30,286 nucleotides of DNA from a virus. Taxonomy: Duplodnaviria > Heunggongvirae > Uroviricota > Caudoviricetes. Location: IMG/VR virus record IMGVR_UViG_2778261087_000001, positions 1 to 30,286 of that record; one strand, given 5' to 3'. Below are positions 2,228-28,522 of the stretch, in pieces; within the stretch, counting starts at the first letter, position 1, and every line of letters starts with the position of its first letter. The notes under the pieces are model-generated. The model was not told where the DNA came from. It searched no databases and saw nothing but the letters and a program-made list of their open reading frames with translations. The position numbers and the translations under genes are program-made.

Positions 2228-2725
2228 TCAGTACCACGATTTTTGCTTCTTCAGTGAATCGTATTGCTGTTCGCAGGATTCTCCTGCAATCCGATACTTT
2301 TCAGCCTCAGCTGCTGTTGCGTTGTAAACTCGATTGCTTTCTTCAAGCATGTCGGCGAGCACACCGATGACCTTGCTGGCTGGCGTGCCAGTGGGGAAAG
2401 ATCCGGTATAGTGTTCGGCGAGTCGCTTGGTTTTGTCAAGCTCGGCGCGCAGGCTGTCAGCAGCGGCATTAGCATGCTCAGCATCAACACGCGCCACATC
2501 GATACGGGATTGTGCTTCACGTTCAATTTGTGTTTTCTCCTGATCACGTTGTGACCTAGCCTTATCATTAGCCTGTTTCTGATCTTCCTGTGCCTGCGCA
2601 TACCCGGCGTCGTACTGACGACTGCCGTGTGCATTCCAGGCTACAACTCCTGATATGACCAGAACAGCAAGCATCGCCATGATAACCAACTGTTTCCAGT
2701 ATGCTTTTACGAATGCCCAGATCAT
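2228..2725 (-). CDS. i-spanin (Rz-like lysis protein)
   Basis: N-terminal transmembrane helix then charged coiled-coil region; ATGA overlap with endolysin stop; last gene of the lysis cassette. Confidence 0.6.
2251..2499 (-). CDS. o-spanin (Rz1-like lipoprotein) embedded in Rz in another frame
   Basis: Alternative frame inside Rz encodes [17 protein letters not shown] (lipobox LTAC) followed by a Pro/Ser-rich mature region; start codon ambiguous (ATG at 2499, 2484 or 2475), no clear RBS. Confidence 0.5.
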   Translation of the reverse strand: MWRVLMLSMLMPLLTACAPSLTKPSDSPNTIPDLSPLARQPARSSVCSPTCLKKAIEFTTQQQLRLKSIGLQENPANSNTIH

Positions 2726-3351
2726 ACCGCCAGCGCCTTACTGGCAGTGATGTACCGAGCGCGCCGGTCGTCGATGCCGTTCCTGCCACCATTGATAATC
2801 AGAGTTACACGTGCAATATCGCCGGTATACTTCATGCAACCTTTGCTGGAGAAGAACCACGCCGCGCTACGAGCCGCGTATTCGTCCTGCGCCAACAGTT
2901 CAGGATTCTCCAGCAGGTCCACTTTCAGGCCGTTTCCGCAATCACGATAGTTATTCAAACCGGTAATCTGGATAAGTCCGCGGCCACGGTAATTCCAGCC
3001 ATCACCAGAGGCATTGTTCCCCATGCGTTTGCTGTACACCAGATTGGCGATCGCTCTCTGGCGCTCGAGTGGCAATGGTGGTTCACCAGCACGGCGACCA
3101 AGTGCATTAGCCTGTCCCTGAGTGAGACGCCCAGCCCGAACGAAGTTAGCCAGTCCGGTGACGCTGTAGTTGAAATTTTCCTGCAACCGGGTGAATCCAC
3201 CAGACTCATGCCCGACCTGAGCAATAAACATTGCCTGATCTTCAGCTTTGCTGATACCAAACTCTTTCATCGCAGAAGTTATATGCGAGAACCAGCGTGC
3301 GGCCAGCGCCTCGCTAATACCAGCAGCTCGCTGGAATTGTTTAATCTCCAT
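2722..3351 (-). CDS. endolysin, glycoside hydrolase family 19 (chitinase-like) type
   Basis: 209 aa with [12 protein letters not shown]...GRGLIQITG motifs typical of GH19 phage endolysins; sits between holin-like genes and Rz. Confidence 0.8.
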
Positions 3352-3649
3352 GTTTAGACCTCGTTATTTTAAAAATCTGCACGACGTTACCGCGCGTTTT
3401 AATAACCGCAGCTAGCATGACAGCGTTGATAATGACCTCAGATAAATCCACAGCCATTGGCGTACGTAACCAGATTGCATAGGCGACACGAACAGGAATA
3501 CTGGCCGCAGCAACAATCAGGAAATAAGCAAGCCATCCTCCCCACCTTCGGTGTTGAGAGCCGTTACGCCGGAATGTGACAACGCGAATTGCTATGCCAG
3601 TGCAAATAACTGCATTGGTGATAAGCAAAAAAAACTCATGCGTTACCAT
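3341..3649 (-). CDS. holin-like / lysis-associated membrane protein
   Basis: 102 aa, about three predicted transmembrane segments, overlaps the endolysin start by 11 nt; GGAG 8 nt upstream of ATG. Confidence 0.5.
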
Positions 3650-4040
3650 CGTCTTTTCTCCCCGGAATTAACTCGCGTGGATTATCGGAACGGTGATAAA
3701 GCCATATACCAATTCGCACAGCGACAATTGACGACACAAATGCGCCAGCAGAGAAGACGATCCCTTTCTCGAAAGAGTCCTGCGTGATGGTAGGGATCAG
3801 GCTGGCTACACCGATAAGGATGGATGCTGTAGGTTTGTAAAAGAGAAGGCCGCAGAGGAAGCTGAGCATAGACAGGAGAACCCGGCGATGAATGGGATAC
3901 TCGATGGCTGAGGTAACAAAAATTACCGCCCCAGCCAAAGCTCCCAAAGCCACCTCTGGAGGAACCCCTGCTATCACCGCAGCAAGAGAACTCGCACTAA
4001 GCCACTGATTTAAAGACTCACTGGTTAGCTGAACTGACAT
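3636..4040 (-). CDS. holin-like membrane protein
   Basis: Multi-pass hydrophobic protein with charged C-terminus; track ORF begins at GTG 4049, but ATG at 4040 has GGTG 6 nt upstream and is preferred. Confidence 0.5.
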   Translation of the reverse strand: MSVQLTSESLNQWLSASSLAAVIAGVPPEVALGALAGAVIFVTSAIEYPIHRRVLLSMLSFLCGLLFYKPTASILIGVASLIPTITQDSFEKGIVFSAGAFVSSIVAVRIGIWLYHRSDNPRELIPGRKDDGNA

Positions 4041-4104
4041 AAAAAACACCGTTTAATGTGCATAAAGAATCCCCTTAGTTGGTTAGTTCATCATACACAA
4101 TAAA

Positions 4105-4160
4105 CCATATGTGGATTAAACTTGATCTGATAATTCTTAACGAAATTACCTTAAAGGTGA
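4105..4160 (+). promoter_or_regulatory. bipartite intergenic motif, copy A (CCATATGTGGAT ... ATTACCTTAAAGGTGA)
   Basis: CCATATGTGG at 4105-4114 and ATTACCTTAAAGGTGA at 4145-4160; same two elements recur at 6084-6150 and 24999-25077. Confidence 0.45.
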
Positions 4161-4261: not shown

Positions 4262-6031
4262 TTAAACAACAATTTTAAGGAAGTTTGAAGCATCCTTATA
4301 AATGGTGCCCGCGGGGGCGCCGTTTATCTCCTCAAGCGTTTTTACGTTCTTCAAAACCACCTTGCCATCTTCCAGAAATTCAATGCATGGTGCGTCGTTG
4401 TTCATTTTTATTTTCAACGAACCAACAGCACTATCTCCGTTTCCGCTTATCCATTCAAGTGACGCAATAGGAAGTGCATTGCCGTTGTGATCTGTCCCTT
4501 GTAGCAAGATCCTTCCAGTTCCTACCCCTGGTATTCTGATAGCTGCGCGACCCCCATCCTCTAAAACTACTTCCAAAATTTCTTTAGGATATTTTGTGTG
4601 CAGCCCTACACGCGACGTGCTCGACAGCCCACCACCACCAGGGACGACGGCAATACCTGGAATAAGCGATTCTGCAAAAAGCATCACTGAGTCTTTATGT
4701 GGATTGACTGCTGGGTTACCGTCATTAATGCCGCCCCCGATCGCAATCGAACCACCATAAGCCTGAATATTCTTACCTACAGCAAAAGAGCCATCTCCTG
4801 CCGCGCGAGTTTGATATCCAATGGCCGCCGCACCAATGCCATCACTTGCAACCCCGCCGGGGTCTGTAGTGTATCCCGGTCTGGCTTGCGTAAAATAACC
4901 TGTTGTAAAAGCCGCCCTTGAAAGCGCTTCCGTTTCTTCACAGAATGCGGCAGATTTTGCGCCAAGAGCAATGACATTTTTCCCAAATGCAAAAGAGCAG
5001 TACCCCTCAGCATTTGGTGAGGTAATATGATCTGGGTCCCCAGTGGCAGAACCAGCACCACCGGCAATAGATGCCACGCCGTACGTAACGCAGTCATGCC
5101 CGAAAGTTGTGGTGTATACCGCGAATGACGCACCGTTTCTGTTAAAAGATGCTGAGTAATCACCGATAAGAGCCGGGTTACACCATGAATTTCTCGGTGT
5201 AGGCAAGCCTCTCCAGAAGTTCTTTTCATCGTCAAGTGGTAGGAGATCGGCACCACCAATTCTCAGCCAACCTTTATCCTTATCAAAAGAAAAAGTGACG
5301 CCATCGGTTAAAGTAGATCCAACCGGTATACCGTAATTAACTTTTGTGCCAATCCTCTTAAGCCCGTCAGGTTGCGCCAGCAATAACAGAACATCTGCTG
5401 CACTACCGCTCTCAGGCAAGACCATAATGGACTCACCTGCATAATCATATGCATGGATCATATTTGCACGTTCTGCAGCAGGAGGGAGTTGCCGCGTAAA
5501 TGACTCTGGAACCCTTAACGTGTGCAGATAGTTGTTGTTACTAATCGTGTCTACATAATTTTTAGTGGCAGCATCCTGCGGGTCTCGTGGGTCGCGCAGG
5601 TTGCGAATGTAATTCCCCAGCGCGTCGTACCAGTTAGCGATGGTTGATGGCTTGCGCAGCGCCAAGGCAAACCAACTGCGAACCTGCTGGATCAGCATCG
5701 TCAGTTTATCGAATGCGTCTTCATGCACCTCAGCGAAGAACTTACCCTGGTTGCGCAGATCGGTATCCTGCGTAACCGGTAGCTCTCTTGATATAGAAAT
5801 CTGATAACCGTTAGCCAACGCCTTCGACAGAATTACATTGCCGCCGTTATACCCTCCCGCACCAGTGACTATGTAATCAGTATCAAGAATCAGCTCTGTG
5901 ATGTTCTCGTTCAGGTCAACAACCTGCACTACTAAATCAGATTTCTGGAAAATCCTGAAGGTATAAGGGAATGCCGTTGTAACACCGTTACCTGTGTATT
6001 CGTTGTGGTCAACTTCGGTTGAGACCGTCAT
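4262..6031 (-). CDS. tail fiber / tailspike protein with T7 gp17-like N-terminal adaptor domain
   Basis: 589 aa; N-terminus (YTGNGVTTAFPYTF...DLVVQVVDL...ITELILDTDY) resembles the conserved podovirus tail-fiber N-terminal domain; Gly/Ala-rich C-terminal part with lower GC at the 3' end; GGAG RBS. Confidence 0.7.
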   Translation of the reverse strand: MTVSTEVDHNEYTGNGVTTAFPYTFRIFQKSDLVVQVVDLNENITELILDTDYIVTGAGGYNGGNVILSKALANGYQISISRELPVTQDTDLRNQGKFFAEVHEDAFDKLTMLIQQVRSWFALALRKPSTIANWYDALGNYIRNLRDPRDPQDAATKNYVDTISNNNYLHTLRVPESFTRQLPPAAERANMIHAYDYAGESIMVLPESGSAADVLLLLAQPDGLKRIGTKVNYGIPVGSTLTDGVTFSFDKDKGWLRIGGADLLPLDDEKNFWRGLPTPRNSWCNPALIGDYSASFNRNGASFAVYTTTFGHDCVTYGVASIAGGAGSATGDPDHITSPNAEGYCSFAFGKNVIALGAKSAAFCEETEALSRAAFTTGYFTQARPGYTTDPGGVASDGIGAAAIGYQTRAAGDGSFAVGKNIQAYGGSIAIGGGINDGNPAVNPHKDSVMLFAESLIPGIAVVPGGGGLSSTSRVGLHTKYPKEILEVVLEDGGRAAIRIPGVGTGRILLQGTDHNGNALPIASLEWISGNGDSAVGSLKIKMNNDAPCIEFLEDGKVVLKNVKTLEEINGAPAGTIYKDASNFLKIVV

Positions 6032-6083: not shown

Positions 6084-6150
6084 TATTACCTTAAAAACCA
6101 CATATGGATAGATAACCCATAAATACGAACAGATATTACCTTTCAGGTGA
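6084..6150 (+). promoter_or_regulatory. bipartite intergenic motif, copy B (TATTACC-N7-CCACATATGGAT ... TATTACCTTTCAGGTGA)
   Basis: TATTACC at 6084-6090, CCACATATGG at 6098-6107, TATTACCTTTCAGGTGA at 6134-6150; about 75 bp upstream of the plus-strand ORF at 6227. Confidence 0.5.
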
Positions 6151-6226
6151 TTCGCAAAACGTGCTGGATAGCAAACAAATTATTTGATACTGTATATTTA
6201 TACAGTTATTGCATGGAGAAGATAAG

Positions 6227-6484: not shown

Positions 6485-6796
6485 GGTTTGCAATTACCAA
6501 CTGGAGTGCTTATATTTACCTTTGCGGTAAATTTACATCGCACTCCTCTTGTGCCATAGTAATCGGGCACTGGCAAAATCCAGTGCCGGGATTGGCGTCC
6601 CGGGTTACTACAGAGGCACATATGCCGCATAAGCGGTTTTTTTATGTGTAAAGCGCACCTATTCTATGGTGGGCTGTGTGGGGGCACCGAAAGGTGCGCC
6701 GGGTCCTTTGTAGCCGGTTACGCCAACCCTGTACAGTTCACCACCAACCGATTGGCGTCGGTAGTGGTGATTAACCTAACTACAAAGGTGATCACT

Positions 6797-7483
6797 ATGA
6801 CTGCTAACGTAACCCCATCTGTTTTTCATTTTGAATCAGAAGCAACCATTCGAGCCATTGTTATTGATGGAAATCCTTGGTTTGTTGCCAAAGACGTTAT
6901 TAAAGCTCTTCAACTGACAAACCCCACTATGTCAATAAAATCTCTTGATGATGATGAAAGGGCTAAATTTAACTTAGGCCGTCAAGGCGAAACCAATATT
7001 ATCAACGAGTCAGGCCTCTACACACTGATCCTCCGCTGCCGCGACGCAGTGACACCAGGCACTATCCCCTACCGCTTTCGTAAATGGGTTACAGGTGAGG
7101 TTCTTCCTCAGATCCGCCGCACCGGAAGTTACATTAAAAACTCGCTCCCGCAGGAAGAACGCATAAAGATGGTTGCCGACCAGGTAGCCAGCGCCACAGC
7201 ATCAGCAGTGATGCAGGCAATGAAGGTAGAGAACAAAACCTACAGCGCCCCACTGAAGCCCGGCTACCGCAGCCTGATTCATTCGCCGTCTGGTGTTCTT
7301 GGACTGACGGAGAACTCACTGCTGATGAATCTGCTGAACCAGTTACAGGACGACGGGCATGACGTATCGGGCGCGGCGGCGGAGCTGACCACCATGTTCT
7401 GCTACATCGTCGGTGTGAGCAAATGCCTGCGTGATATCCAGACGCACGCGGAGTACATCAGCGACAAAGCAGGATTCTTCTGA
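6797..7483 (+). CDS. Bro-N domain protein (antirepressor-like)
   Basis: From ATG 6797 (AAGGTG 6 nt upstream): VFHFE...IRAIVIDGNPWFVAKDVIKAL...SLDDDERAKF is a typical Bro-N signature; the track extension upstream to 6644 has no RBS and is rejected. Confidence 0.7.
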   Translation: MTANVTPSVFHFESEATIRAIVIDGNPWFVAKDVIKALQLTNPTMSIKSLDDDERAKFNLGRQGETNIINESGLYTLILRCRDAVTPGTIPYRFRKWVTGEVLPQIRRTGSYIKNSLPQEERIKMVADQVASATASAVMQAMKVENKTYSAPLKPGYRSLIHSPSGVLGLTENSLLMNLLNQLQDDGHDVSGAAAELTTMFCYIVGVSKCLRDIQTHAEYISDKAGFF

Positions 7484-7547: not shown

Positions 7548-7564
7548 TATTACCTTAAAGGTAA
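7548..7564 (+). promoter_or_regulatory. TATTACCTTAAAGGTAA motif, copy D, abutting the RBS
   Basis: Near-perfect palindrome TTACCTTAAAGGTAA immediately 5' of AAGGAGG (7564-7570) and ATG 7577. Confidence 0.45.
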
Positions 7565-7764: not shown

Positions 7765-8208
7765 TTGAAGTTTAACATTAGAATATCTAATAGTTTTCTA
7801 CATGGGGAAAGCAACACCCCTTTCGCTGTAGACGGACCTTTCCTTACTGATGATGAAATAAAAATCATACAAAGGTTTTTAGAGGATGTTGCCAATGGAA
7901 GGGCGCTTGTTGGAAAAAACAAGCCCTCGTGGGTTGATGATAACCATGATAAAATTCCCGGCTCAGACAATTATGAGCAAGAGAATTATTGGCATTATCA
8001 TTGTGGGCCAACATGGTATCCAAACACATTTAAGAATTATACCATTAACTTAAATTTCAACCCTGGCGGAATGCATTCTAATGAATGCATTCATTATGCA
8101 AAAAATGATAATGAAATTGTCATTGTTGGATTTTCAAGAGAACACATACCTTTCCTTTCATCAGATGGAAACAACAATCCGCTTTTTAATGATGAAGAAG
8201 AAGAATAA
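7765..8208 (+). CDS. hypothetical protein, AT-rich moron (147 aa, acidic C-terminus)
   Basis: TTG start with AGGAG 6 nt upstream; markedly AT-rich codon usage with rare AGA/AGG/ATA codons, unlike flanking GC-rich phage genes; followed by a strong terminator. Confidence 0.5.
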   Translation: MKFNIRISNSFLHGESNTPFAVDGPFLTDDEIKIIQRFLEDVANGRALVGKNKPSWVDDNHDKIPGSDNYEQENYWHYHCGPTWYPNTFKNYTINLNFNPGGMHSNECIHYAKNDNEIVIVGFSREHIPFLSSDGNNNPLFNDEEEE

Positions 8209-8229
8209 GCCCGCGCTGCGGGCTTTTTT
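8209..8229 (+). terminator. rho-independent terminator
   Basis: GCCCGC-GCT-GCGGGC hairpin followed by TTTTTT directly after the 147-aa ORF stop. Confidence 0.65.
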
Positions 8230-8301
8230 GTGGACGAAACAAAAGTCAGTGCTACACTCATTGACGCCACATTGAGGTGGCTTATAGATGGAAATTTCAC
8301 A

Positions 8302-8463
8302 ATGAAAAAAGCATTTGCTGCACTGTTCGTTTTGTTGTCTCTGGTAGCTTCAACTCAGGCCTTTGCCGGCCGTTGTCAGCACGACAGCGATACTGCCGCT
8401 GACGGCTCCCGCTGCGGTGGGCGTTCTGCGGATTCCCGTCCGGGCGGCGGTGGCATTCGTTAA
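8302..8463 (+). CDS. small secreted Cys/Gly-rich peptide (53-aa precursor)
   Basis: From ATG 8302: MKKAFAALFVLLSLVASTQAFA is a classic signal peptide (AFA-G cleavage), then a 31-aa Gly/Arg-rich region with two Cys; weak RBS. Confidence 0.4.
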   Translation: MKKAFAALFVLLSLVASTQAFAGRCQHDSDTAADGSRCGGRSADSRPGGGGIR

Positions 8464-8485
8464 AAACAAGGCCGCGAAAGCGGCC
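8461..8485 (-). terminator. rho-independent terminator (minus strand)
   Basis: GGCCGC-GAAA-GCGGCC hairpin (8470-8485); minus strand then reads TTGTTTTTA; lies just downstream of the 8495-8791 gene. Confidence 0.5.
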
Positions 8486-8486
8486 T

Positions 8487-8498
8487 GTGACATGTCAC
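8487..8498. repeat. 12-bp perfect palindrome GTGACATGTCAC (copy 1 of 3)
   Basis: Exact palindrome, also at 26060-26071 and 28511-28522, each at a gene or module junction. Confidence 0.6.
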
Positions 8499-8791
8499 GC
8501 TCTTTTTCTGAATGATAGCCATTCGAAAAATGATGACATTCCACCGCAGACAATAGCAAATATGATCCCACCAAAGAAGAGAAGGCCAGCCTGCCACCAC
8601 TCCCACCGCCATACATCCACAGCGCCAACCATACCAACAATCGCTCCAACAAATGGAATATAGCTCACGATGAAAGCAATGGGGGCTGCAATTATCCAGT
8701 GCAATCCCCACCATGATTCAAGCCCAGCCATAATTGCTGCCAACTGAAAAAGACCAACGACGATATAAACAATGAATCCTATAGCTTGCAT
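8495..8791 (-). CDS. hypothetical integral membrane protein
   Basis: 98 aa, very hydrophobic with Trp-rich loops, about three transmembrane helices; AGGTGA RBS. Confidence 0.55.
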   Translation of the reverse strand: MQAIGFIVYIVVGLFQLAAIMAGLESWWGLHWIIAAPIAFIVSYIPFVGAIVGMVGAVDVWRWEWWQAGLLFFGGIIFAIVCGGMSSFFEWLSFRKRA

Positions 8792-8803
8792 GTAGTCACC
8801 TAT

Positions 8804-8977
8804 TTACCCAGTAAAAATCAGAGGCCTCCCCTCAATAAGGCTTGCAACAAGAACTATTCCCTGCACAACAAAGATGAACCAGCAAATAGCTTGAGTCTGA
8901 GGGTTAAGAAAATATTTGTAGCGGTCAATAAATAACAACCCACCAGAAATTATCACACTCAAAATAATTAAAAACAC
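8804..8977 (-). CDS. hypothetical small membrane protein (57 aa)
   Basis: Below track cutoff; GTG start 4 nt after GGAAG, immediately downstream of the 824-aa gene stop; two hydrophobic helices; start uncertain. Confidence 0.3.
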   Translation of the reverse strand: MFLIILSVIISGGLLFIDRYKYFLNPQTQAICWFIFVVQGIVLVASLIEGRPLIFTG

Positions 8978-8986
8978 AACACTTCC

Positions 8987-11461
8987 TTATTGCGGAGTGA
9001 CATCCTGAGGTCGCCACCAGTATGTCTGGTTAAACTCTTTCTTCGAACGTTGCTCCATTTTACGCAAATAGCCTGGTGAAAAATACTCCTGCATCTGGTT
9101 AAAGATCATATGATCGAGAGCCGCCTTTAAGTACCAGAGATTCGCACCTGGCATCAAACCTTTCCCCAGCTTCACCAGATCACCACCAGTCTGCTCACTC
9201 TTCCCTTCCACAGCATTTAACGGTATGCCCTGAGCAATCTTCACTACGTCATCAACCAGACCAGCTACCGGGCCAAGCATCGACGCCAGCGCGCCGCTTC
9301 CGTACCTAGTGTGATCTGACAATAAAAAGTCACCGTAAAGGCCAAGACCACCACCTTTCAGTAGAGCACCAAGCCAGAATTTTGCGGCATCTTCTCCTGT
9401 CATATCTCGAGGATTACGACCAGACGCAAGGTCGTTAAGTTGCTGCGACAAAGCGCCAAGAATGGTCGTACTGGCAATAAACGTCGCAATATATGCCGCA
9501 CGCCCACCAGCAGACGGCATCCCCATAGCGCGTGACCAGTGACGCATAACCACCGAGATAGGGAACGATTTAAACAGGAAAACACTTCTCGTTAATTCAC
9601 CTTTCCATGTTCCACGCTGAATACCAGAACCGGTTATCAGTTGCTCACGTGCTCCCGGTGTAATAACAGCCATATCAACTTCTTCAGTTACAGCACCGAG
9701 CAGTTTACGCATTGCCTCAAATTTCACGCGTTCAGGCTCACCAATATGTTTAACTGCTGAATCAGGGATACGCATAATGCTTTCCGGTGTCAGCATCGTA
9801 TTATTACCGTTCCCCCAGTCCTCCTGTTGCGCCAGCTTCCATACGCTCCAGTCTGTGTCAGTAATCCCTTTGCTTTTCAGGATACGAAAATCAGAGTCAT
9901 CGAGGCTACGAAGGTCTGGTGTCCGTGACACTACTTCTCCCAGGCTTCCCATCATAGTTACGCCATAGGCGCGCTTGTGCGCATCTGACCATGCTGTAAG
10001 CCCACTGGCACGCATTACCGCAGTTGCCGCCCAACGAGACACAGACGGCCCCATATTATCCATCGCCCAGCGGTTAACGCTGCCAAGTAGAGATTCCATC
10101 GCCAGACCAGCTCGGCGCGCCCGCGCAAGCTCAGTACGGTTCGTTGGGTCCATAGCTTCAAGCTGGTTGCGGAATAACTGGTTCATTGGAAGGTTGGTAA
10201 CCTTCGCAGACAGATACATGGTTCCAAGATCAGAGAACGATGACAGCAACGCGGATCCGAGTCTGCTGGCAACCAGCCAGTTGCGGATATTGTCAGACCA
10301 TCGCGCGATGTGCGGATTCGCTACAGGCTGTGTCTTTCCGGAAATAAAGTTGTACAGATTCTCTGTGTTGTTCGCCAGCCGCTCGACTTTACCGGTTTTA
10401 CTCGGGTTAGCTGTTGCCGTTTCTGCCTTCACCTGATCAAGAAGAGAGCGGAAAACATGATCGGGGTTTGGGCCATATGTTTCCACCAATGCAATATCTT
10501 TACTGATACCTTCAAGGTGACCGACCATGATTTCCCATAGAGAGCGATCGCCATAAAGTTGCTGATATTGCAGATAGGAATCTGCATCTTTGAAATGTAT
10601 CTGTCGTGATGCATTACCACGGTTAGCACGTGCGCCGGAAATTCGCATTCCGGTATCAGTAAGCTTATTCAGCCCACCAGTAGCGATCGTGTTATAAGCC
10701 TCTCCAAGAAATGCAGACAACTCGGCATCGTTCATCAGTTGTCCATCGGCTCGGGTATAATATTTGCGATCCAGCTTACCTATAACATCGCTAACCCATT
10801 TATCTTTTGATACCGCCCCAACCTTTTCCATAGAATGATGTTGAGGGATCCCCCAGTTTTCGAGATAGCCAATGTCCCCACCAGCATCATTAAACCGGCG
10901 GCGCAGCAGCTCTGTAACTTCTCTCCACGCCTTAGCACCTTTTCTTGCTTTAGCATTGCCAGTATTTTGCCCCCGCATTTCATATATCAGGTCACGTACG
11001 CCCGCTTCATCTTCAAACAGACCAAAAAAGCGAGGATCAACTGCTTCGAATGCCTCCTGCAATTGACTCAATGCATAATCACGGGTGGCTTTTGTTCTGG
11101 ATTCAACAGAGAGGAAATTCGATTTACCGTCTGCATTAAAAGCAATAGTACGGTTAAGAGCGCCAAGTTTCCCATCAGCCCCTTGATAGCTATTGATAAA
11201 TTTATCCAATCTCTGACGTGCGGCTATAGTGAGGGCCACACGACGTTTCTTTAATGCCGCTTCTCGCTGTAATTCTTCAGATGCCAATTGTGCTGCACGA
11301 TACAACCGTTCTGATTCGGAAAGTTGTCGCCACGACATCGGGTCATCACGAGCAATGGAGCGCATATTTCGATAAATGCGGTCTTCAATGTTCTGTATTT
11401 CTCGCGCCGTTAACGTGCGCTGCGCCGCCTGCTGGACCGCTTGTATACATTCCTGTCTCAT
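8987..11461 (-). CDS. internal virion / ejection protein (large, 824 aa)
   Basis: Third of three consecutive very large proteins between the tail tube genes and the tail fiber, the position of T7 gp15/gp16-like core proteins; hydrophobic Gly-rich C-terminal segment. Confidence 0.6.
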   Translation of the reverse strand: MRQECIQAVQQAAQRTLTAREIQNIEDRIYRNMRSIARDDPMSWRQLSESERLYRAAQLASEELQREAALKKRRVALTIAARQRLDKFINSYQGADGKLGALNRTIAFNADGKSNFLSVESRTKATRDYALSQLQEAFEAVDPRFFGLFEDEAGVRDLIYEMRGQNTGNAKARKGAKAWREVTELLRRRFNDAGGDIGYLENWGIPQHHSMEKVGAVSKDKWVSDVIGKLDRKYYTRADGQLMNDAELSAFLGEAYNTIATGGLNKLTDTGMRISGARANRGNASRQIHFKDADSYLQYQQLYGDRSLWEIMVGHLEGISKDIALVETYGPNPDHVFRSLLDQVKAETATANPSKTGKVERLANNTENLYNFISGKTQPVANPHIARWSDNIRNWLVASRLGSALLSSFSDLGTMYLSAKVTNLPMNQLFRNQLEAMDPTNRTELARARRAGLAMESLLGSVNRWAMDNMGPSVSRWAATAVMRASGLTAWSDAHKRAYGVTMMGSLGEVVSRTPDLRSLDDSDFRILKSKGITDTDWSVWKLAQQEDWGNGNNTMLTPESIMRIPDSAVKHIGEPERVKFEAMRKLLGAVTEEVDMAVITPGAREQLITGSGIQRGTWKGELTRSVFLFKSFPISVVMRHWSRAMGMPSAGGRAAYIATFIASTTILGALSQQLNDLASGRNPRDMTGEDAAKFWLGALLKGGGLGLYGDFLLSDHTRYGSGALASMLGPVAGLVDDVVKIAQGIPLNAVEGKSEQTGGDLVKLGKGLMPGANLWYLKAALDHMIFNQMQEYFSPGYLRKMEQRSKKEFNQTYWWRPQDVTPQ

Positions 11462-15791: not shown

Positions 15792-16331
15792 TTATCGACC
15801 GGTTGGAGTGCCAACAGCAGCAGAAATCGGCGCAGCCTTCTGAGAGAATGGGCTCCACGTTCCTCCGCCCATCTGGTATGCACCGTATGCTTTTAGTGGT
15901 GCCGTTAACAAAGTGCTGGTCATCGATGATTTAGCAGCCGACTGAGCAGCATCCCCCTGTGCCTGAGCATTCATTCCCTGAACCTGATACCCATATGCCT
16001 CACGCTGAGCATTATTCACTGTCGTTAACGCATCAAGAGTGCCGAACTGAGCATTATCCGCAAAAACGTCAAGAGCTGTTCCGCTACTTAATTCCGCACC
16101 GGTAGCCCCCATAGTGGCCGCCGCAGTACCTGAGCGTTGACGCATTTCACGACGACGCTGATCCGCTTCAATATTCCCACGATTGATTGAATCCTGTGCC
16201 TGAGCTTCAGCAATTTCAGCATTCCGATCAGCTATGGCTGACTGGTATTTTGCCTGCTTGCTCTGGCTGTACATTGACGCGGCTGTGGATGCCACTGTGA
16301 CGGCAACCAAAGCGATGGCTGGGTTACACAT
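15792..16331 (-). CDS. internal virion protein with N-terminal membrane anchor (T7 gp14-like position)
   Basis: 179 aa; N-terminal hydrophobic helix, Ala/Gln-rich body; sits between the gp13-position and large core genes. Confidence 0.5.
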   Translation of the reverse strand: MCNPAIALVAVTVASTAASMYSQSKQAKYQSAIADRNAEIAEAQAQDSINRGNIEADQRRREMRQRSGTAAATMGATGAELSSGTALDVFADNAQFGTLDALTTVNNAQREAYGYQVQGMNAQAQGDAAQSAAKSSMTSTLLTAPLKAYGAYQMGGGTWSPFSQKAAPISAAVGTPTGR

Positions 16332-22782: not shown

Positions 22783-23075
22783 TCCTGTTCACTGGCCTCT
22801 TTGGCCATCTTCAAATACTGTTCAGGGCAATGCGCCATAACGCGCTGAAACAGTTCCAGCGCCAGATTGCGTTGCCCCTCATTAAATGCCATTGCCATAG
22901 CGTCCATCGGTGAGATAGCGGAAAACACACGGCCTTTCTCCAGCACCGACCAGACAACGCGACGCCCCTGTTCACTGCTCATGACAAAGCGAATGTCATC
23001 AATTTCACGCTGCGCCATGTCACGTTGCTTACGGGCGTTTTCTTCTTTCAGTTGATCGTCTTCGTAATCTGTCAT
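22779..23075 (-). CDS. hypothetical protein (98 aa)
   Basis: Charged helical ORF, ATGA-type overlaps with the portal and scaffold genes. Confidence 0.45.
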   Translation of the reverse strand: MTDYEDDQLKEENARKQRDMAQREIDDIRFVMSSEQGRRVVWSVLEKGRVFSAISPMDAMAMAFNEGQRNLALELFQRVMAHCPEQYLKMAKEASEQE

Positions 23076-24751
23076 TGTGATTGCCCACCCTGACCACTAA
23101 CTGCATTCGCCATAGCTGACAACACACTCGGATCCGAAGTTTTAGCTTCGCTTAGCGTCTTGGCCCCCTGTGCCGCCGCCATCCCCATCGCCATCATTTG
23201 TTGCTGCTGTTGTTGCTGTGCCCGTTGCTGGCGAGCCTGCTCAACCTGTTCCTGCGGAACAATGACGGTTGGAGACACTCCGGACATATCAGCGAATGCA
23301 TCGATCGCCTGATCAACGTTGAGTTTGTCGAGAGCTTCTGGTTTCGCTTGCGCAAGTTGACCAATGAAGTTGACCGTAGACGCCAGACTGGACAGGCCGA
23401 TAGACTTCTGCGCCTGAGCCATGACGGAAATGTATTCGACCTTCAGGGGCATACCTTCCATCGCGTCAGGCGGTGGCGGCAGCATGTTTTTACGCACCAT
23501 CATCGAGAAAGCGCGGTCAATGAGAGGATTAAGACATTCGTCGTTCAGACGCTCCAGAACCGGCCCCAACATCAGAAGTTTTTCTTCTTTCATTTCGATC
23601 ACTGCTTCAACAGGCATCGAGCGGGTATTGATGTTCTGCAACATCATGAACAGATCGACAAAGTAGGCGCTGTTAATGATTTGACGAGTGTCCTGAATGT
23701 CTGCTACCAGATCTGCTGTACTGGGGTTAACCAGATAAGCAGGCCTGAAGCCATCCTGACCAGTAATCTGATCGATATACGTGATGTCGCCAGGAAGAAG
23801 GGAGGCGCGCTGATTCTTGAGGGAAGTCGGAGCAACCATCGGCGGATTGGTGGCTTTATCAATCAACTGCGACTTGCGCTTCTGGAGAAGTTGCAATGCC
23901 TTAACAGGTCCAAGCGCCAGCATACCCGGGCATGATGATCCATAAACATCTTCGCCATTAACTTCCCAGCGCGGAGCCATAATTGGAAACTCATCAAATC
24001 CGGACTCACGCAACAACTTGTCGTTATCGCCACCAACCTCGTAATAAACCGATTTGAATGGCTTGTTCTTGCTATCCAGCTTCGATGTATCGCGGTCAAT
24101 GTTCGGGTAAACCGAATGCATCACTTCAATCCACTTCTCGTAGGTGCCGCTTTCCCACATGCTTTTTACGGATTCGCTGACGTTATTTAGTCCGAACTCC
24201 TGAACAAGCTGACGAACAGTCATAGAGAACTTGCGAAAACAGGTGTCCACACTGCCACGAGGTGAGTTAGCCAGGTAGTAACTGCCTATCGGGAATGGCA
24301 TTGTGCGAATGATGTCCTCATCATCCTCCAGCACTGCCATTGCACCAGTGCTGTATGTGCCTAGGCTTCCGTATAACTGCGGCAGTGACTGATAGAGATT
24401 CGACTTATTGAACATATCGTTCATGCGGTTCTGCACCGCCTCAAGCCACAACTTAACAGGGCCATAATCCATCATTTCAGGATCTGGCGTAGCCAGGCGA
24501 AACCACGGACGCGCGGGGCTTGTGATGCCTGACATCATGCCGCTGGCGAGAGTGCGCGCCGCTATAGTCCCGGTAGAATCAATAATGCGTGTATTGCGTC
24601 GATCGTTACGGTTGACCTCAGAAGTCAGAAAGCGGGAACCACGCGGGTTGATGTAATCACTCAACTCGCGCCAGTGCGGCTCGAACGACTGACGCTCGCT
24701 TTCAAGTTGTGCGAACTGTTTGTTCAATCGCTCTTTAGTTGTTTCCGCCAT
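23072..24751 (-). CDS. portal (head-to-tail connector) protein
   Basis: 559 aa, Gln-rich flexible C-terminus, first long gene of the head module after terminase. Confidence 0.7.
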   Translation of the reverse strand: MAETTKERLNKQFAQLESERQSFEPHWRELSDYINPRGSRFLTSEVNRNDRRNTRIIDSTGTIAARTLASGMMSGITSPARPWFRLATPDPEMMDYGPVKLWLEAVQNRMNDMFNKSNLYQSLPQLYGSLGTYSTGAMAVLEDDEDIIRTMPFPIGSYYLANSPRGSVDTCFRKFSMTVRQLVQEFGLNNVSESVKSMWESGTYEKWIEVMHSVYPNIDRDTSKLDSKNKPFKSVYYEVGGDNDKLLRESGFDEFPIMAPRWEVNGEDVYGSSCPGMLALGPVKALQLLQKRKSQLIDKATNPPMVAPTSLKNQRASLLPGDITYIDQITGQDGFRPAYLVNPSTADLVADIQDTRQIINSAYFVDLFMMLQNINTRSMPVEAVIEMKEEKLLMLGPVLERLNDECLNPLIDRAFSMMVRKNMLPPPPDAMEGMPLKVEYISVMAQAQKSIGLSSLASTVNFIGQLAQAKPEALDKLNVDQAIDAFADMSGVSPTVIVPQEQVEQARQQRAQQQQQQQMMAMGMAAAQGAKTLSEAKTSDPSVLSAMANAVSGQGGQSQ

Positions 24752-24998: not shown

Positions 24999-25077
24999 TA
25001 TTACCAATTTAACCATATATGATTTATTTATCGTAGATAGTTGACATTTAACGCACGAATTATTACCTTTCAGGTAG
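24999..25077 (+). promoter_or_regulatory. bipartite intergenic motif, copy C, with TTGACA; candidate promoter of the tRNA unit
   Basis: TATTACC (24999-25005), CCATATATGA (25013-25022), TTGACA (25041-25046), TATTACCTTTCAGGTAG (25061-25077). Confidence 0.45.
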
Positions 25078-25399: not shown

Positions 25400-25476
25400 G
25401 TGGCATTAGCTCAGTCGGACAGAGCAACCGCCTTCTAAGCGGTTGGTCGCAGGTTCGAATCCTGCATGCCACGCCA
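25400..25476 (+). tRNA. tRNA-Arg (anticodon TCT)
   Basis: 77 nt; 7-bp acceptor stem GTGGCAT/ATGCCAC, D arm GCTC...GAGC, anticodon stem ACCGC/GCGGT with loop CTTCTAA, T arm GCAGG-TTCGAAT-CCTGC, discriminator G, CCA end; acceptor stem differs from host argU as recalled. Confidence 0.85.
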
Positions 25477-25674: not shown

Positions 25675-26055
25675 ATGAACGACCAGCAAATCGAAAAAGA
25701 AATCGTTGAGAAAGGCAAAACGGCACCGCGAATCACCCCGCAGCACATCGAAGATGTGATTAAAAGCGAGCATTACTTTACTGCTTATGATGGACGAAAT
25801 GGTGCCATTTCCAGCAACGAATATTGTGGCAGAGAAAAACCAGAAGAAGGCGATCGTGATTTATCACCATTGAAGTTGCTCACTTTCTGCGTACTGGTGC
25901 TGAAGAATGGCTTCACCGTCACCGGAGAGAGTGCCTGTGCAAGCCCGGAAAATTTTGATGCAGAAATTGGTCGGAAGATTGCCCGGCAGAATGCTGTAAA
26001 CAAAATCTGGATGCTCGAAGGTTACTTGCTGAAGCAGAAGTTAAGCGAGCAATAA
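25675..26055 (+). CDS. phage Gp49-like protein (function unknown)
   Basis: 126 aa, AAGGTGA RBS; segment LTFCVLVLKNGFTVTGESACASPENFD...IWMLEGYLLK matches the Gp49-like family as recalled. Confidence 0.55.
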   Translation: MNDQQIEKEIVEKGKTAPRITPQHIEDVIKSEHYFTAYDGRNGAISSNEYCGREKPEEGDRDLSPLKLLTFCVLVLKNGFTVTGESACASPENFDAEIGRKIARQNAVNKIWMLEGYLLKQKLSEQ

Positions 26056-26059
26056 CACC

Positions 26060-26071
26060 GTGACATGTCAC
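26060..26071. repeat. 12-bp perfect palindrome GTGACATGTCAC (copy 2 of 3)
   Basis: Exact palindrome 5 nt after the gp49-like stop codon and just before its terminator. Confidence 0.6.
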
Positions 26072-26145: not shown

Positions 26146-27621
26146 TTAAGCATAAGGGTCATAATCCGTTATGGCCCTTCCCTGCTGGCTTTGCTGTCCT
26201 GGTATATTTATGCGTTTCGAGACCGGGAAAGCAAACGTCAGCAATAGCGCATCGCCTTTCCCCGGCGAACGCCCAAGTCGCTCCTTGATATCTTCCTTCG
26301 GTTCGATAACGATTTTACCGTCCACGCGAACTTTGTACTCTGCCGTCGACAGGTCGTCCGCTGTTTCTTGGTCATCCAGCATGCCGCCGAGCCTCAGCCA
26401 TGTCTTGCATGAGTTGAACATCTCCCCACGCTTGTTGAGCATCTGCGGGTCAGTAGACGCGCCACCGAACGGAACAAGTTGCCATGTACGACCCCAGCCG
26501 TCACCGATTGACTTCAAACCGGTTCCGTAACCGAAGTCGATGAACACCGCGTCAGCCTGATACTGGTCTTCAAAGTCAGCGATACGCTTCGCCATAATCA
26601 GATCGTCGGTAGTCTTGTTGCCAGTCCACAGCACCTTACTGTGTAGCCCCTGCCGCAGGTATATCACAGCGTCATCAACACCGGAGTATGCCGGGTCAAC
26701 GCCGATTATCACCGGAGCATGTGCAACCTGCGCAGCGGTTACCACCCGTTTCATTGCCTCGTCAGTAAGACCGGTAGGGATAAACTGCAATTCAGATGCA
26801 TCAGGGAATATGCCACGCACACGGATTTTAACGAAGTCGCTGTCTTCCCCGTAGTCATCAACCCATTTCTGCAACTGCTGTTTGTTGGTACCTTCCACCG
26901 TCCGACTGTCAATCTGCGCAGTTTTCCAGCGGTGTTTATACTTGCGGAAACATTCACGGAAACGTCCGGTATTACGAGTCGGGTTTCCGAACGCCACCCA
27001 GATGATTTCGGTGTCTTCGTCCGTCAGCGCACCCTCTGCTACCTCCCACACCAGATCGGCAATGTTCGACGCTTCATCGAATACCACGATGATGCGTTTG
27101 CGCTCGTTGTGTAGTCCGGCGAATGCCTCAGTGTTGTGCTCAGACCATGGGATTGCGTCAGCTCGCCACCGCTTGTCGTGCCCAGGGTCATTGCTGTACA
27201 TCGCGGTAGCGGTACAGGTAAACCAGTCTTTCGTGATAGCAAGGTTTGACCACTTGATAATTTCCGGCCAGGTCTTCGTTCGTAGCTGGTTGTCGGTGTT
27301 GGCGGTCACCACGACCTTACAATCCTCGCAAGTGGACATGCCCCAGTTGATCAGCATTGAGATGAATGCGGATTTACCAATACCGTGACCAGAAGCGCGT
27401 GCCAGCATAAGCGGCTGATAGCGCGTCTCTGGATTCTGCAGGTGATCACGTATCTCTCGGAACGCATCGGCCTGCCACTGACGTGGACCGGTGGCATGTG
27501 CCAGTTCAGTACCCTCTTCCCCCCACGGGAACGCATAGAGGGCATAGCCAAGCGGATCGTGAGTGAACCCTGCAATATCCTCGATTAACTGCTCTTCAGG
27601 AGATAACGCTGTATCTGTCAC
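26146..27621 (-). CDS. terminase large subunit
   Basis: 491 aa; Walker A-like GHGIGKS in the N-terminal ATPase region, acidic nuclease-like C-terminal half; 4-nt overlap with the upstream small-terminase ORF. Confidence 0.85.
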   Translation of the reverse strand: MTDTALSPEEQLIEDIAGFTHDPLGYALYAFPWGEEGTELAHATGPRQWQADAFREIRDHLQNPETRYQPLMLARASGHGIGKSAFISMLINWGMSTCEDCKVVVTANTDNQLRTKTWPEIIKWSNLAITKDWFTCTATAMYSNDPGHDKRWRADAIPWSEHNTEAFAGLHNERKRIIVVFDEASNIADLVWEVAEGALTDEDTEIIWVAFGNPTRNTGRFRECFRKYKHRWKTAQIDSRTVEGTNKQQLQKWVDDYGEDSDFVKIRVRGIFPDASELQFIPTGLTDEAMKRVVTAAQVAHAPVIIGVDPAYSGVDDAVIYLRQGLHSKVLWTGNKTTDDLIMAKRIADFEDQYQADAVFIDFGYGTGLKSIGDGWGRTWQLVPFGGASTDPQMLNKRGEMFNSCKTWLRLGGMLDDQETADDLSTAEYKVRVDGKIVIEPKEDIKERLGRSPGKGDALLLTFAFPVSKRINIPGQQSQQGRAITDYDPYA

Positions 27622-28214
27622 TGATTGCCATCCTGACGTTCTTTCAGTCTCTTCCTGGCTGCCGCTATGCGATCAGCAATTGTCACATTCACATTAACAT
27701 CCAGGCGTTCTTTGAATGCGTTGACGTCGACGTGCTTACCAATCAGTTCGAGGTTCTTCACCTTGTCAGGCCATTTAATTTTTTTGAGGATTGTCTCTAT
27801 CGAATCCTCGTTCATGTTCATGATGGTCGATGACAGATCAAAGCCACTAAGCGTAGTGCGCCAGATTTTCGGCCACTCGCGGATTGGCTTAAGGCTCCCA
27901 TCGTCGTTGAGGATGTCGATCACGTCCATCTGGTCGATCTCCACCAGACGCATGAGAACGTAATCAGCACTGACGCGCATTCGTTTGTTGCGCTCCTCCA
28001 TCAGCTCGGCAATCCGTTTTTGAATGCGTTCATCGCGCATCATGACACTGGCTTTAACTGCCGCTGTATTTGGGGAGAATCCTGCGTTAATCGCTGCCTG
28101 AGTCTGGTTTTCAGGCGTTTTGATGTATGACTGGCAATAAGCCTCCTGCATTGCTGTTAGTGGCTTAAATTGCGTTGATTTGCGTTTATAGGTTTTAGGT
28201 TCAGCAGGCATCAT
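27618..28214 (-). CDS. terminase small subunit
   Basis: Basic helical protein immediately upstream of the large terminase; track ORF extends to TTG 28292, but ATG 28214 lies after an upstream terminator and direct repeats and is preferred. Confidence 0.6.
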   Translation of the reverse strand: MMPAEPKTYKRKSTQFKPLTAMQEAYCQSYIKTPENQTQAAINAGFSPNTAAVKASVMMRDERIQKRIAELMEERNKRMRVSADYVLMRLVEIDQMDVIDILNDDGSLKPIREWPKIWRTTLSGFDLSSTIMNMNEDSIETILKKIKWPDKVKNLELIGKHVDVNAFKERLDVNVNVTIADRIAAARKRLKERQDGNQ

Positions 28215-28221
28215 AACCACC

Positions 28222-28250
28222 GTGGTAATAGTTACCGTTGTGGTAATAGT
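28222..28250 (-). repeat. two 11-bp direct repeats (ACTATTACCAC on the minus strand) upstream of terS
   Basis: GTGGTAATAGT on the plus strand at 28222-28232 and 28240-28250; contain the same TATTACC core as the plus-strand motifs. Confidence 0.5.
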
Positions 28251-28251
28251 A

Positions 28252-28283
28252 CCATGCAAAATAAAGCCGCCATAGTTGGCGGC
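28252..28283 (-). terminator. rho-independent terminator between the early-type genes and the packaging operon
   Basis: Minus strand GCCGCC-AACTAT-GGCGGC followed by TTTATTTTG. Confidence 0.5.
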
Positions 28284-28288
28284 AGTAT

Positions 28289-28522
28289 TCAAAGTCCATC
28301 AAATTCATCGTAAAAACTCTCGTCAAGATACCCTTCCCATTTACCGCGAATGAAAATTACATCCTCGCCGCAAGGGTGCTGACTGTCGATAACTATATCC
28401 CTCCTGGCGCAACCATACTTATGCATGAGAAATTTAACCTCTTTCGGAAAATTTGCTGAGTTATCTCTCATATCTTCAAGGTCGTAGCGTATTTTTGGCA
28501 TAACACCTTCGTGACATGTCAC
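28289..28522 (-). CDS. hypothetical protein
   Basis: Track ORF with GTG start inside the palindrome; alternative ATG at 28501 (MPKIRYD...) has AAGGTG only about 2 nt upstream; start uncertain. Confidence 0.45.
   Translation of the reverse strand: MTCHEGVMPKIRYDLEDMRDNSANFPKEVKFLMHKYGCARRDIVIDSQHPCGEDVIFIRGKWEGYLDESFYDEFDGL
28511..28522. repeat. 12-bp perfect palindrome GTGACATGTCAC (copy 3 of 3)
   Basis: Exact palindrome overlapping the stop codon of the 113-aa gene and the 5' end of the next gene. Confidence 0.6.

Follow-up and report, generated by a model that had tools for sequence, protein, structure and literature searches.

Do three small genes that lie tail to tail in a prophage, all of them with products directed to the cell envelope, belong to one system, or are they independent units that meet at a shared boundary? 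The question is raised by a 30,286-nucleotide (nt) stretch of Caudoviricetes DNA (IMG/VR record IMGVR_UViG_2778261087_000001; hereafter the window), in which a gene for a 53-amino-acid (aa) exported-peptide precursor on the plus strand converges on minus-strand genes for membrane proteins of 98 and 57 aa. A preliminary description, made from the sequence alone, had suggested that the three form an exclusion, immunity or envelope-modifying module in a prophage accessory slot. We found all three open reading frames (ORFs) at the positions and with the lengths it gave, and all three evolve as proteins; the accessory location and the direction of the products to the envelope also stand, but the single module is not supported, because the peptide gene lies on the opposite strand from the membrane genes and is distributed independently of them. 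We conclude that the peptide gene is a separate, portable cassette and that the late operon ends with the two membrane genes, and we regard it as probable that the anatomy of the locus is that of two independent units meeting at one terminator. The genes are real, but the case as a whole is a catalogued and rather ordinary one, and they make up no new three-gene system.

Distribution of the three genes

Among 5426 complete E. coli genomes, the base of all E. coli counts given here, the peptide cassette was present in 422 (about 8%) and the 98-aa gene in 216, and the two stood side by side in 150. About 272 of the 422 peptide carriers (about 64%) have no adjoining 98-aa gene, and about 66 of the 216 genomes with the 98-aa gene (about 31%) have no peptide. 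The distribution of the three genes among related prophages, which had been proposed as a check on the module, is thus not a joint one, the 98-aa gene adjoining the peptide in only 150 of 422 carriers. The two membrane genes do keep together: the 57-aa segment was found in 205 genomes, with the 98-aa gene adjacent in 205 of 205.

What follows the peptide gene differs from prophage to prophage. Ant/Arc takes this place in TL-2011b and E. coli MS8324, a phiV10-type 46-aa gene in strain 94_0962, a lipoprotein gene in Citrobacter, and genes for a Rap1a-like and a secreted protein in Klebsiella; the Pectobacterium peptide gene lies antisense between two long minus-strand genes of an unrelated type of tailed prophage. 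All that is left in phiV10 (locus L002, 5995-6060) is the last ~25 nt of the peptide ORF (ggcattcgttaa), standing before the same terminator and palindrome as in the window; this stub is a deletion remnant, and the same remnant occurs in some E. coli prophages. The varied contexts of the peptide, taken with its independent occurrence, set the cassette apart from the late-operon membrane genes.

On the opposite strand and with a terminator on either side (8207-8225 and 8469-8486), the peptide gene probably makes up its own transcription unit, and its presence varies among collinear relatives, as that of a moron does. Lambda bor and lom are phage morons as Juhala and Hendrix use the term, and the peptide gene resembles them in being small, terminator-bracketed, equipped with a candidate promoter of its own, present or absent among collinear phages and antisense to the late operon, although for the peptide gene expression in the lysogen and promoter activity are predictions from sequence. 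The scope of the original proposal needs correction: these genes are not to be treated as one system.

Membrane genes at the end of the late operon

The membrane pair is as small and as hydrophobic as had been described, with three hydrophobic stretches and a basic C-terminus in the 98-aa protein and two hydrophobic stretches around a DRYKY loop in the 57-aa protein. The former matches PHROG 3075 (E = 2.2e-54, residues 1-97 of 98) and has 52 homologues, with identity down to 44%; the latter belongs to a narrower family of 13 homologues at 74-98% identity from E. coli, Citrobacter, Klebsiella, Salmonella and Enterobacter. The ratio of nonsynonymous to synonymous differences per site (pN/pS) is 0.06-0.33 for the 98-aa ORF, and for the 57-aa ORF it is 0.23-0.38 in frame versus 0.9-3 in the other frames. 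That all three products of the locus are envelope-directed and under purifying selection is supported. An AlphaFold2 model of the 98-aa protein (predicted local distance difference test score, pLDDT, 90.6) has four helices, at residues 2-28, 32-42, 46-59 and 65-97, and fold searches with this model returned no informative structural neighbour.

Both genes stand behind that of an 824-aa virion protein homologous to epsilon15 gp17, a protein that has been placed in the T7 IVP-D family (PMC4819975). Gaps of 9 nt separate the gp17 homologue from the 57-aa gene and of 12 nt the 57-aa from the 98-aa gene, and no promoter-like site was found upstream of either membrane gene at the scan threshold. Distant homologues of the 98-aa protein in Cronobacter, Yersinia and Salmonella are always encoded right behind a gp17 homologue on the same strand, the two genes being 1 nt apart in Cronobacter, and no peptide gene lies near any of these distant loci.

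The preliminary description had set its proposal against membrane proteins conserved as virion components in all relatives and a peptide ORF that is untranslated. We found the 57-aa and 98-aa genes to be absent from phiV10 and epsilon15, and the peptide ORF to evolve as a translated one (see below). Elsewhere the slot at the late-operon end is filled by other genes: Citrobacter carries a 126-aa lipoprotein gene instead of the 98-aa gene (locus L019, 4279-4659), and Klebsiella a Rap1a-like protein (PF18602, a type VI immunity family) together with a 134-aa secreted protein (locus L016, 5238-6094). Epsilon15 gp18 (64 aa) and phiV10 gp21 (46 aa) are two-helix membrane proteins whose genes, like the 57-aa gene, come right after gp17, and they precede the palindrome and terminator, but neither has detectable sequence similarity to the 57-aa or 98-aa proteins; homology of the 98-aa protein to gp18 was tested for directly and not found.

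One could envision the 98-aa protein, with or without its 57-aa neighbour, as a lysis-timing factor (holin- or antiholin-like) or as a virion or ejection accessory needed in every infection, since its gene shares a transcript with those of internal virion proteins and keeps its place behind the IVP-D homologue across genera, and since the protein has three hydrophobic stretches and a basic C-terminal tail in common with class I holins and weakly matches Phage_holin_5_2 (E = 0.027). However, that match lies under the Pfam cut-off (15.2 versus 29.2 bits) and is made by only 2 of 28 family members, a complete lysis cassette is found elsewhere, at 2228-4049, the 98-aa gene is missing from phiV10 and epsilon15, and relatives have non-homologous envelope proteins in its slot. 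We rejected the holin family as an identity and consider a lysis, ejection or virion role unlikely. The unrelated envelope proteins in the slot and the absence of the genes from the two reference phages argue for cargo that acts on the envelope of the infected cell rather than for essential virion parts.

Still less likely, in our view, is the reading from which we started, in which the three genes form one exclusion, immunity or envelope-modifying module, for example a secreted effector with membrane partners or immunity proteins. Its attractions are that the genes are adjacent and convergent, that their products are all envelope-directed, that the same arrangement is found in 150 E. coli genomes and in Cronobacter, and that T4 exclusion pairs a membrane protein, Imm, with a periplasmic one, Sp. 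Yet these genes are on different strands in different transcription units, and the neighbour is missing in the large fractions of carriers given above, on both sides; the peptide is found beside Ant/Arc, lipoprotein or Rap1a-like genes or in the unrelated Pectobacterium prophage, and the distant 98-aa homologues have no peptide nearby.

The 57-aa gene also exposes a likely systematic annotation gap, small but concrete, as the listed RefSeq rows for its 205 E. coli genomes show nothing annotated beneath the match. The late-operon end is a cargo slot for envelope proteins and thereby a good place in which to seek exclusion or protection functions.

The peptide gene and its product

The precursor reads MKKAFAALFVLLSLVASTQAFA followed by GRCQHDSDTAADGSRCGGRSADSRPGGGGIR, the putative cleavage point lying between the two. 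Its composition and the sequence rules agree with the earlier description of a 53-aa precursor with a signal peptide and a 31-aa Gly/Arg-rich mature part containing two cysteines; the "Cys" of its label "Cys/Gly-rich" overstates 2 Cys in 31 residues. The mature part has 8 Gly, 5 Arg, 4 Asp and the 2 Cys, spaced C-x12-C. The signal peptide was assigned by rule (a basic n-region, an h-region of 10-15 residues and small residues at -3/-1) and by conservation of the -3/-1 positions in 26 homologues: a KK n-region, a hydrophobic stretch inside residues 1-23 and A-F-A at -3/-1, before G, agree with the sequence criteria for Sec export and signal peptidase I, and the small -3/-1 residues are kept in homologues.

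The family is already catalogued. The peptide matches the PHROG 14503 profile over residues 1-53 of 53 (E = 2.3e-40), the label of that family being "membrane associated protein" in the moron category, and 57 homologues were found, many of them named "transmembrane anchored protein" at NCBI (e.g., TL-2011b F365_gp43, WP_000708858.1), from E. coli, Shigella, Citrobacter, Klebsiella, Cronobacter, Franconibacter, Salmonella, Pectobacterium and Dickeya. It is 100% identical to proteins of TL-2011b and phiv142-3. No sequence difference sets it apart from the PHROG 14503 or "transmembrane anchored protein" family, whose name is an annotation only; an AxA site suggests a product that is cut, not one anchored permanently. 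Because the peptide is identical to deposited proteins and its family is known, the finding itself is modest.

How the peptide evolves is more informative. An alignment of homologues shows a signal peptide that varies and is always hydrophobic, and 15 invariant mature positions. When the window is compared with a Pectobacterium prophage, 14 synonymous differences (pS 0.72) and 0 amino-acid changes fall in the 25-codon core; E. coli versus Pectobacterium comparisons of the core give 13-14 synonymous differences (pS about 0.7), pS between genera is 0.63-0.72, near saturation, and the two core steps counted as nonsynonymous are an AGC/TCT serine codon switch. By this pattern of substitution the peptide ORF evolves as a translated gene. 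A short ORF with a weak Shine-Dalgarno sequence that abuts a conserved terminator and palindrome, and of which phiV10 retains the last ~25 nt without an ORF, might in principle be untranslated and conserved for its DNA or RNA elements (terminator, palindrome or regulatory RNA), but the chance of this is negligible given a 25-residue core unchanged or nearly so between genera at such pS, a signal-peptide part that changes yet stays hydrophobic, and the same motif in hundreds of unrelated protein contexts. A longer GTG-started ORF (8230-8463, 77 aa) in the same frame was rejected as the conserved frame, the sequence 5' of the ATG diverging with indels in Klebsiella, Cronobacter and Pectobacterium.

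Pfam, NCBIfam and PADLOC scans of the peptide gave nothing significant, matches to MarB and HxsA3 being signal-peptide noise; a PDB sequence search with the peptide-family profile returned nothing at E <= 10, and a literature search on the family and its motif found no papers. In the AlphaFold2 model the mature peptide has a pLDDT of about 50-60, and the model is unreliable past the signal helix. The peptide gene is among the most strongly conserved small accessory genes of the epsilon15/phiV10-like prophages.

Control signals of the peptide cassette

The Rho-independent terminator of the upstream 147-aa gene is also found before the peptide in TL-2011b, E. coli MS8324 and Klebsiella despite differing upstream genes, and it is the conserved 5' boundary of the cassette. 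The candidate promoter behind it has an in-register counterpart in Klebsiella (TGGATG, 17 nt, TAAACT). The small inverted repeat in the presumed leader appears in the predicted RNA fold, which is not significant (z = -1.6), and inverted repeats of other sequence occupy this position in Klebsiella, Cronobacter and Pectobacterium. The Shine-Dalgarno sequence of the peptide gene is GGA.

Two kinds of regulatory site stand elsewhere in the window. Palindromes of the TTACCTTAAAGGTAA type have 9 matches (<=3 mismatches) versus 0.46 expected; they match an epsilon15 site annotated as a repressor operator (ATTACCTGTAAGGTAAT) and stand ahead of the lysis cassette and of the tailspike/gp19-like divergent region, as well as upstream of the genes for Bro-N/Ant and the 147-aa protein. 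A near-consensus LexA box lies upstream of the gp19-like ORF that opens the plus-strand antirepressor region, with a similar box at the equivalent place in epsilon15, which suggests that this region, ending with the peptide gene, may be under SOS control. The peptide gene of the window has neither a TTACCTTAAAGGTAA-type palindrome nor a LexA box of its own, and this, with the strong terminator upstream, fits expression independent of the antirepressor operon.

The convergent gap

The stops of the peptide gene (8463) and the 98-aa gene are 31 nt apart, and the convergence and the palindrome copy that had been described here are as reported. Between them lies the late-operon terminator hairpin, conserved in phiV10, TL-2011b and E. 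coli prophages, which in the predicted fold also forms the 3' hairpin of the peptide mRNA. The preliminary description had called it a bidirectional terminator. A terminator on the minus strand is borne out by the scan, which made a call on that strand only, but the plus-strand T-run (CTCTTTTTCT) comes only after the weak hairpin of the palindrome and is not conserved in other contexts.

The palindrome itself, GTGACATGTCAC, is a perfect one of 12 bp with three exact copies in the window (8487-8498, 26060-26071 and 28511-28522), versus 0 in 100 shuffles. Epsilon15 carries it at three corresponding places (L021 2142, L014 7518 and L022 11613), namely after the large terminase gene, at the gp18 stop, and on the stop codon of the gp49 regulator, whose gene lies ahead of that for the small terminase. 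It marks the late-operon end in 10 of 14 related loci compared, epsilon15 included, and Citrobacter has a one-base variant, GTGATATGTCAC, at the same place. Overlap of the palindrome with a TGA stop codon is frequent, as are positions next to terminators and at mosaic junctions; homology between the peptide-only contexts and the window stops at 8488-8502, that is, at the palindrome. It may serve as a site for protein binding, belong to a compound terminator or be a hotspot of recombination; a literature search found no paper that mentions it. We consider this syntenic palindrome worth following up, together with the apparently unannotated 57-aa gene and the motif superfamily described next.

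The core motif

A profile search of 1.84 billion representative proteins returned 463 clusters at E <= 0.001 (clusters made at 50% identity, mostly metagenomic). The part they share is the mature core of the peptide, with the consensus [AS]-G-N-C-[DP]-[YC]-P-x-[DN]-x-A-x-[DN]-G-S-R-C-G-x-R-[SA]-A-x-x-R-P-G-G, in short form C-x12-C-G-x-R-[SA]-A-x-x-R-P-G-G; one subgroup has the form CPCPYNxAxNGSRCGGRS. The motif comes right after an N-terminal hydrophobic segment in 62 of 130 motif-bearing matches, 28 of them peptide-sized and 34 with a long C-terminal extension; it stands at the extreme C-terminus in 48 and internally in 20. A NucA/NucB nuclease domain accompanies the motif in one relative and a bacterial SH3 domain in another, both extracytoplasmic contexts, and no Pfam or NCBIfam model matches the core motif in the window peptide or the relatives scanned. 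Judged by these matches, the core of the peptide is a widespread extracytoplasmic motif in a copy that stands alone, and the presence of the motif on secreted nucleases and SH3 proteins points to a role in binding or anchoring rather than catalysis. A phenotype for the peptide would annotate hundreds of protein clusters at once.

Comparison with known systems

The order in P22 is gene 16, sieA, mnt, arc, ant, gene 9, so that there, too, an antirepressor region lies between the last ejection-protein gene and the tailspike gene, and a gene convergent on the ejection gene (sieA, in the sieA/immI region) encodes an envelope protein. The likeness is positional only: SieA is a 164-aa membrane protein, whereas the convergent gene of the window encodes a predicted 53-aa exported peptide. 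The 98-aa family was also rejected as a SieA homologue (hhalign probability 0.2%).

T4 Sp (spackle) and Imm and E. coli MgrB are small proteins, Sec-targeted or anchored in the membrane, each of which binds a single partner and so acts in the periplasm, and MgrB depends on two periplasmic cysteines. The resemblance of the peptide to them is functional only, and we claim no homology.

The Excalibur calcium-binding domain (PF05901) has the motif DxDxDGxxCE, and the segment D30-x-A-x-D34-G35-x-x-C38-G of the peptide fits 4 of its 6 motif positions in register; both are extracytoplasmic and cysteine-bounded, and one relative is a secreted nuclease. Against this identity, the third Asp and the Glu are absent and the cysteines are 12 residues apart versus about 30 in Excalibur; we rejected it, there being no Pfam match at E <= 1 for the window peptide nor at the limits used for 20 relatives.

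Three further identities were rejected for the peptide. A lipoprotein of the Cor, Llp or Bor type would need a lipobox, L-[AS]-[GA]-C, and the site reads A-F-A-G-R-C, most homologues having F-A-G-N-C with an extra residue before the Cys. A class II microcin or bacteriocin does not fit a Sec-type leader without a double glycine, nor phage neighbours without a transporter. Arbitrium signals vary between phages, whereas this mature part is invariant across genera, and no neighbouring gene looks like a receptor. With a limit of E <= 1, PADLOC matched none of the three proteins, nor the 147-aa neighbour.

Possible functions

How might the two units act? The peptide unit, laid out like a moron as an upstream terminator, a weak candidate promoter, a 53-codon ORF and a hairpin, would be expressed in the lysogen, and its product would leave the cytoplasm through Sec and lose its leader to signal peptidase I, with the cut after AFA. 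The result would be a 31-residue periplasmic peptide in which a 12-residue Asp-rich loop, closed by the two cysteines, precedes an Arg/Gly-rich tail. A core identical across genera with saturated synonymous sites argues for a conserved binding partner, not for an arms-race target or a diversifying signal of the arbitrium type, and the peptide may thus bind a conserved envelope component, with a conversion or exclusion phenotype as the outcome, in the manner of T4 Sp or MgrB. The products of the second unit, a 57-aa hairpin protein and the 98-aa protein, would be made late and inserted in the inner membrane. The slot after the 57-aa gene is cargo space, held by a lipoprotein or Rap1a-like periplasmic proteins in relatives, and these products would act on the envelope of the infected cell in exclusion or protection and not as parts of the virion.

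That the peptide is a prophage-encoded periplasmic binding peptide that alters an envelope function of the lysogen, such as the entry of other phages or envelope signalling, is at best a tentative proposal, and any specific function for either unit is about as doubtful. A more far-reaching version sees in the mature peptide the smallest form, standing free, of an extracytoplasmic mini-domain new to the literature ([AS]-G-N-C-x5-[DN]-x-A-x-[DN]-G-S-R-C-G-x-R-[SA]-A-x-x-R-P-G-G) that binds a conserved envelope ligand, captured by temperate phages of Enterobacterales as a periplasmic decoy or inhibitor that changes the phage susceptibility or envelope signalling of the lysogen; the ligand might, for instance, be a metal ion, an anionic polymer or a domain of some periplasmic protein. 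We think this improbable.

Several observations weigh against the main proposals made here for the two units. The PADLOC, Pfam, NCBIfam, PDB and fold searches gave no defined target for either unit. The candidate promoter scores under the scan threshold (8 of 12 matches). The Cronobacter region upstream of the peptide gene is different and holds a TTACCTTAAAGGTAA-type copy directly upstream of the gene, so peptide regulation may vary by phage. The disulfide loop is suggested by the invariant cysteines, AlphaFold2 confidence for this part being low. Finally, some longer members of the motif superfamily (P0136, P0143) carry the motif after a second hydrophobic helix behind a cleavable signal peptide, which read literally would place it in the cytoplasm, and the compartment is thus not certain superfamily-wide.

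Phage identity and map of the window

The window has the gene order of the genus Uetakevirus, as in an epsilon15/phiV10-like E. coli prophage (Table 1). Along their whole length, the 1.4 kb around the three genes share 98.5% identity with Escherichia phages phiv142-3 and HEMP4, with piecewise matches to phiV10, TL-2011b and epsilon15-like Salmonella phages. The plus-strand gene segment between the gp17 homologue and the tailspike gene varies from phage to phage, and the three-gene region is a mosaic accessory segment that reaches from the last internal-virion-protein gene to the tailspike gene.

Table 1. Positions of the features discussed, numbered from the first nucleotide of the window.
Feature	Positions	Strand	Basis or remark
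53-aa precursor of predicted exported peptide	8302-8463; ATG 8302, TAA 8461-8463	+	PHROG 14503
Predicted signal peptide, 22 aa	8302-8367	+	sequence rules
Predicted mature two-cysteine peptide, 31 aa	8368-8460	+	sequence rules
98-aa inner-membrane protein, last late-operon cistron	8495-8791; stop 8495-8497	-	PHROG 3075
57-aa two-helix membrane protein, GTG start	8804-8977	-	starts 9 nt after stop of gp17 homologue
Rho-independent terminator of upstream 147-aa gene	8207-8225	+	AAGCCCGCGCTGCGGGCTT then TTTTTT
Candidate sigma-70 promoter of peptide gene	8231-8258	+	TGGACG, 16 nt, TGcTACACT (extended -10); read from the sequence
Small inverted repeat GCCAC-ATTGAG-GTGGC	8265-8281	+	presumed 5' leader of peptide mRNA
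Late-operon terminator hairpin AGGCCGC-GAAA-GCGGCCT	8469-8486	-	7-bp stem, 6 G-C pairs, TGTTTTT on - strand
12-bp perfect palindrome GTGACATGTCAC	8487-8498		overlaps stop codon of 98-aa gene
TTACCTTAAAGGTAA-type palindromes	4146-4160, 6136-6150, 6516-6530, 7550-7564, 25063-25077		
Near-consensus LexA box TACTGTATATTTATACAGTT	6188-6207		upstream of gp19-like ORF opening + strand antirepressor region
147-aa ORF just upstream of peptide cassette	7765-8208	+	PHROG 5954
Bro-N/Ant antirepressor	6644-7483	+	
824-aa virion protein, epsilon15 gp17 homologue	8987-11461	-	PHROG 684, 1286 bits; position of phiV10p20
T7 gp14-family internal virion protein	15792-16331	-	
Portal	23072-24751	-	gene order
Terminase	26146-28292	-	gene order
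Tailspike	4262-6031	-	
Lysis cassette	2228-4049	-	Phage_holin_8, Phage_holin_3_7, endolysin, Rz-like gene

The product of the 147-aa ORF had no Pfam, NCBIfam or PADLOC match, and its position is taken in other prophages by a protein of 210 aa or of 125 aa or by a toxin of the YafO family. Beyond the Rz-like gene lie two plus-strand genes, of which 958-1476 encodes a glycine-zipper/TraT-like and 1492-2031 a DUF5384 protein; the part of the window that holds them showed no integrase, and they could be prophage-end cargo or host DNA. A tRNA-Arg gene (anticodon TCT; 25400-25476, plus strand) and a gene of the N4 gp49/Sf6 gp66 family (25675-26055, plus strand) are inserted between the large terminase and portal genes, and this insertion is closed by palindrome and terminator.

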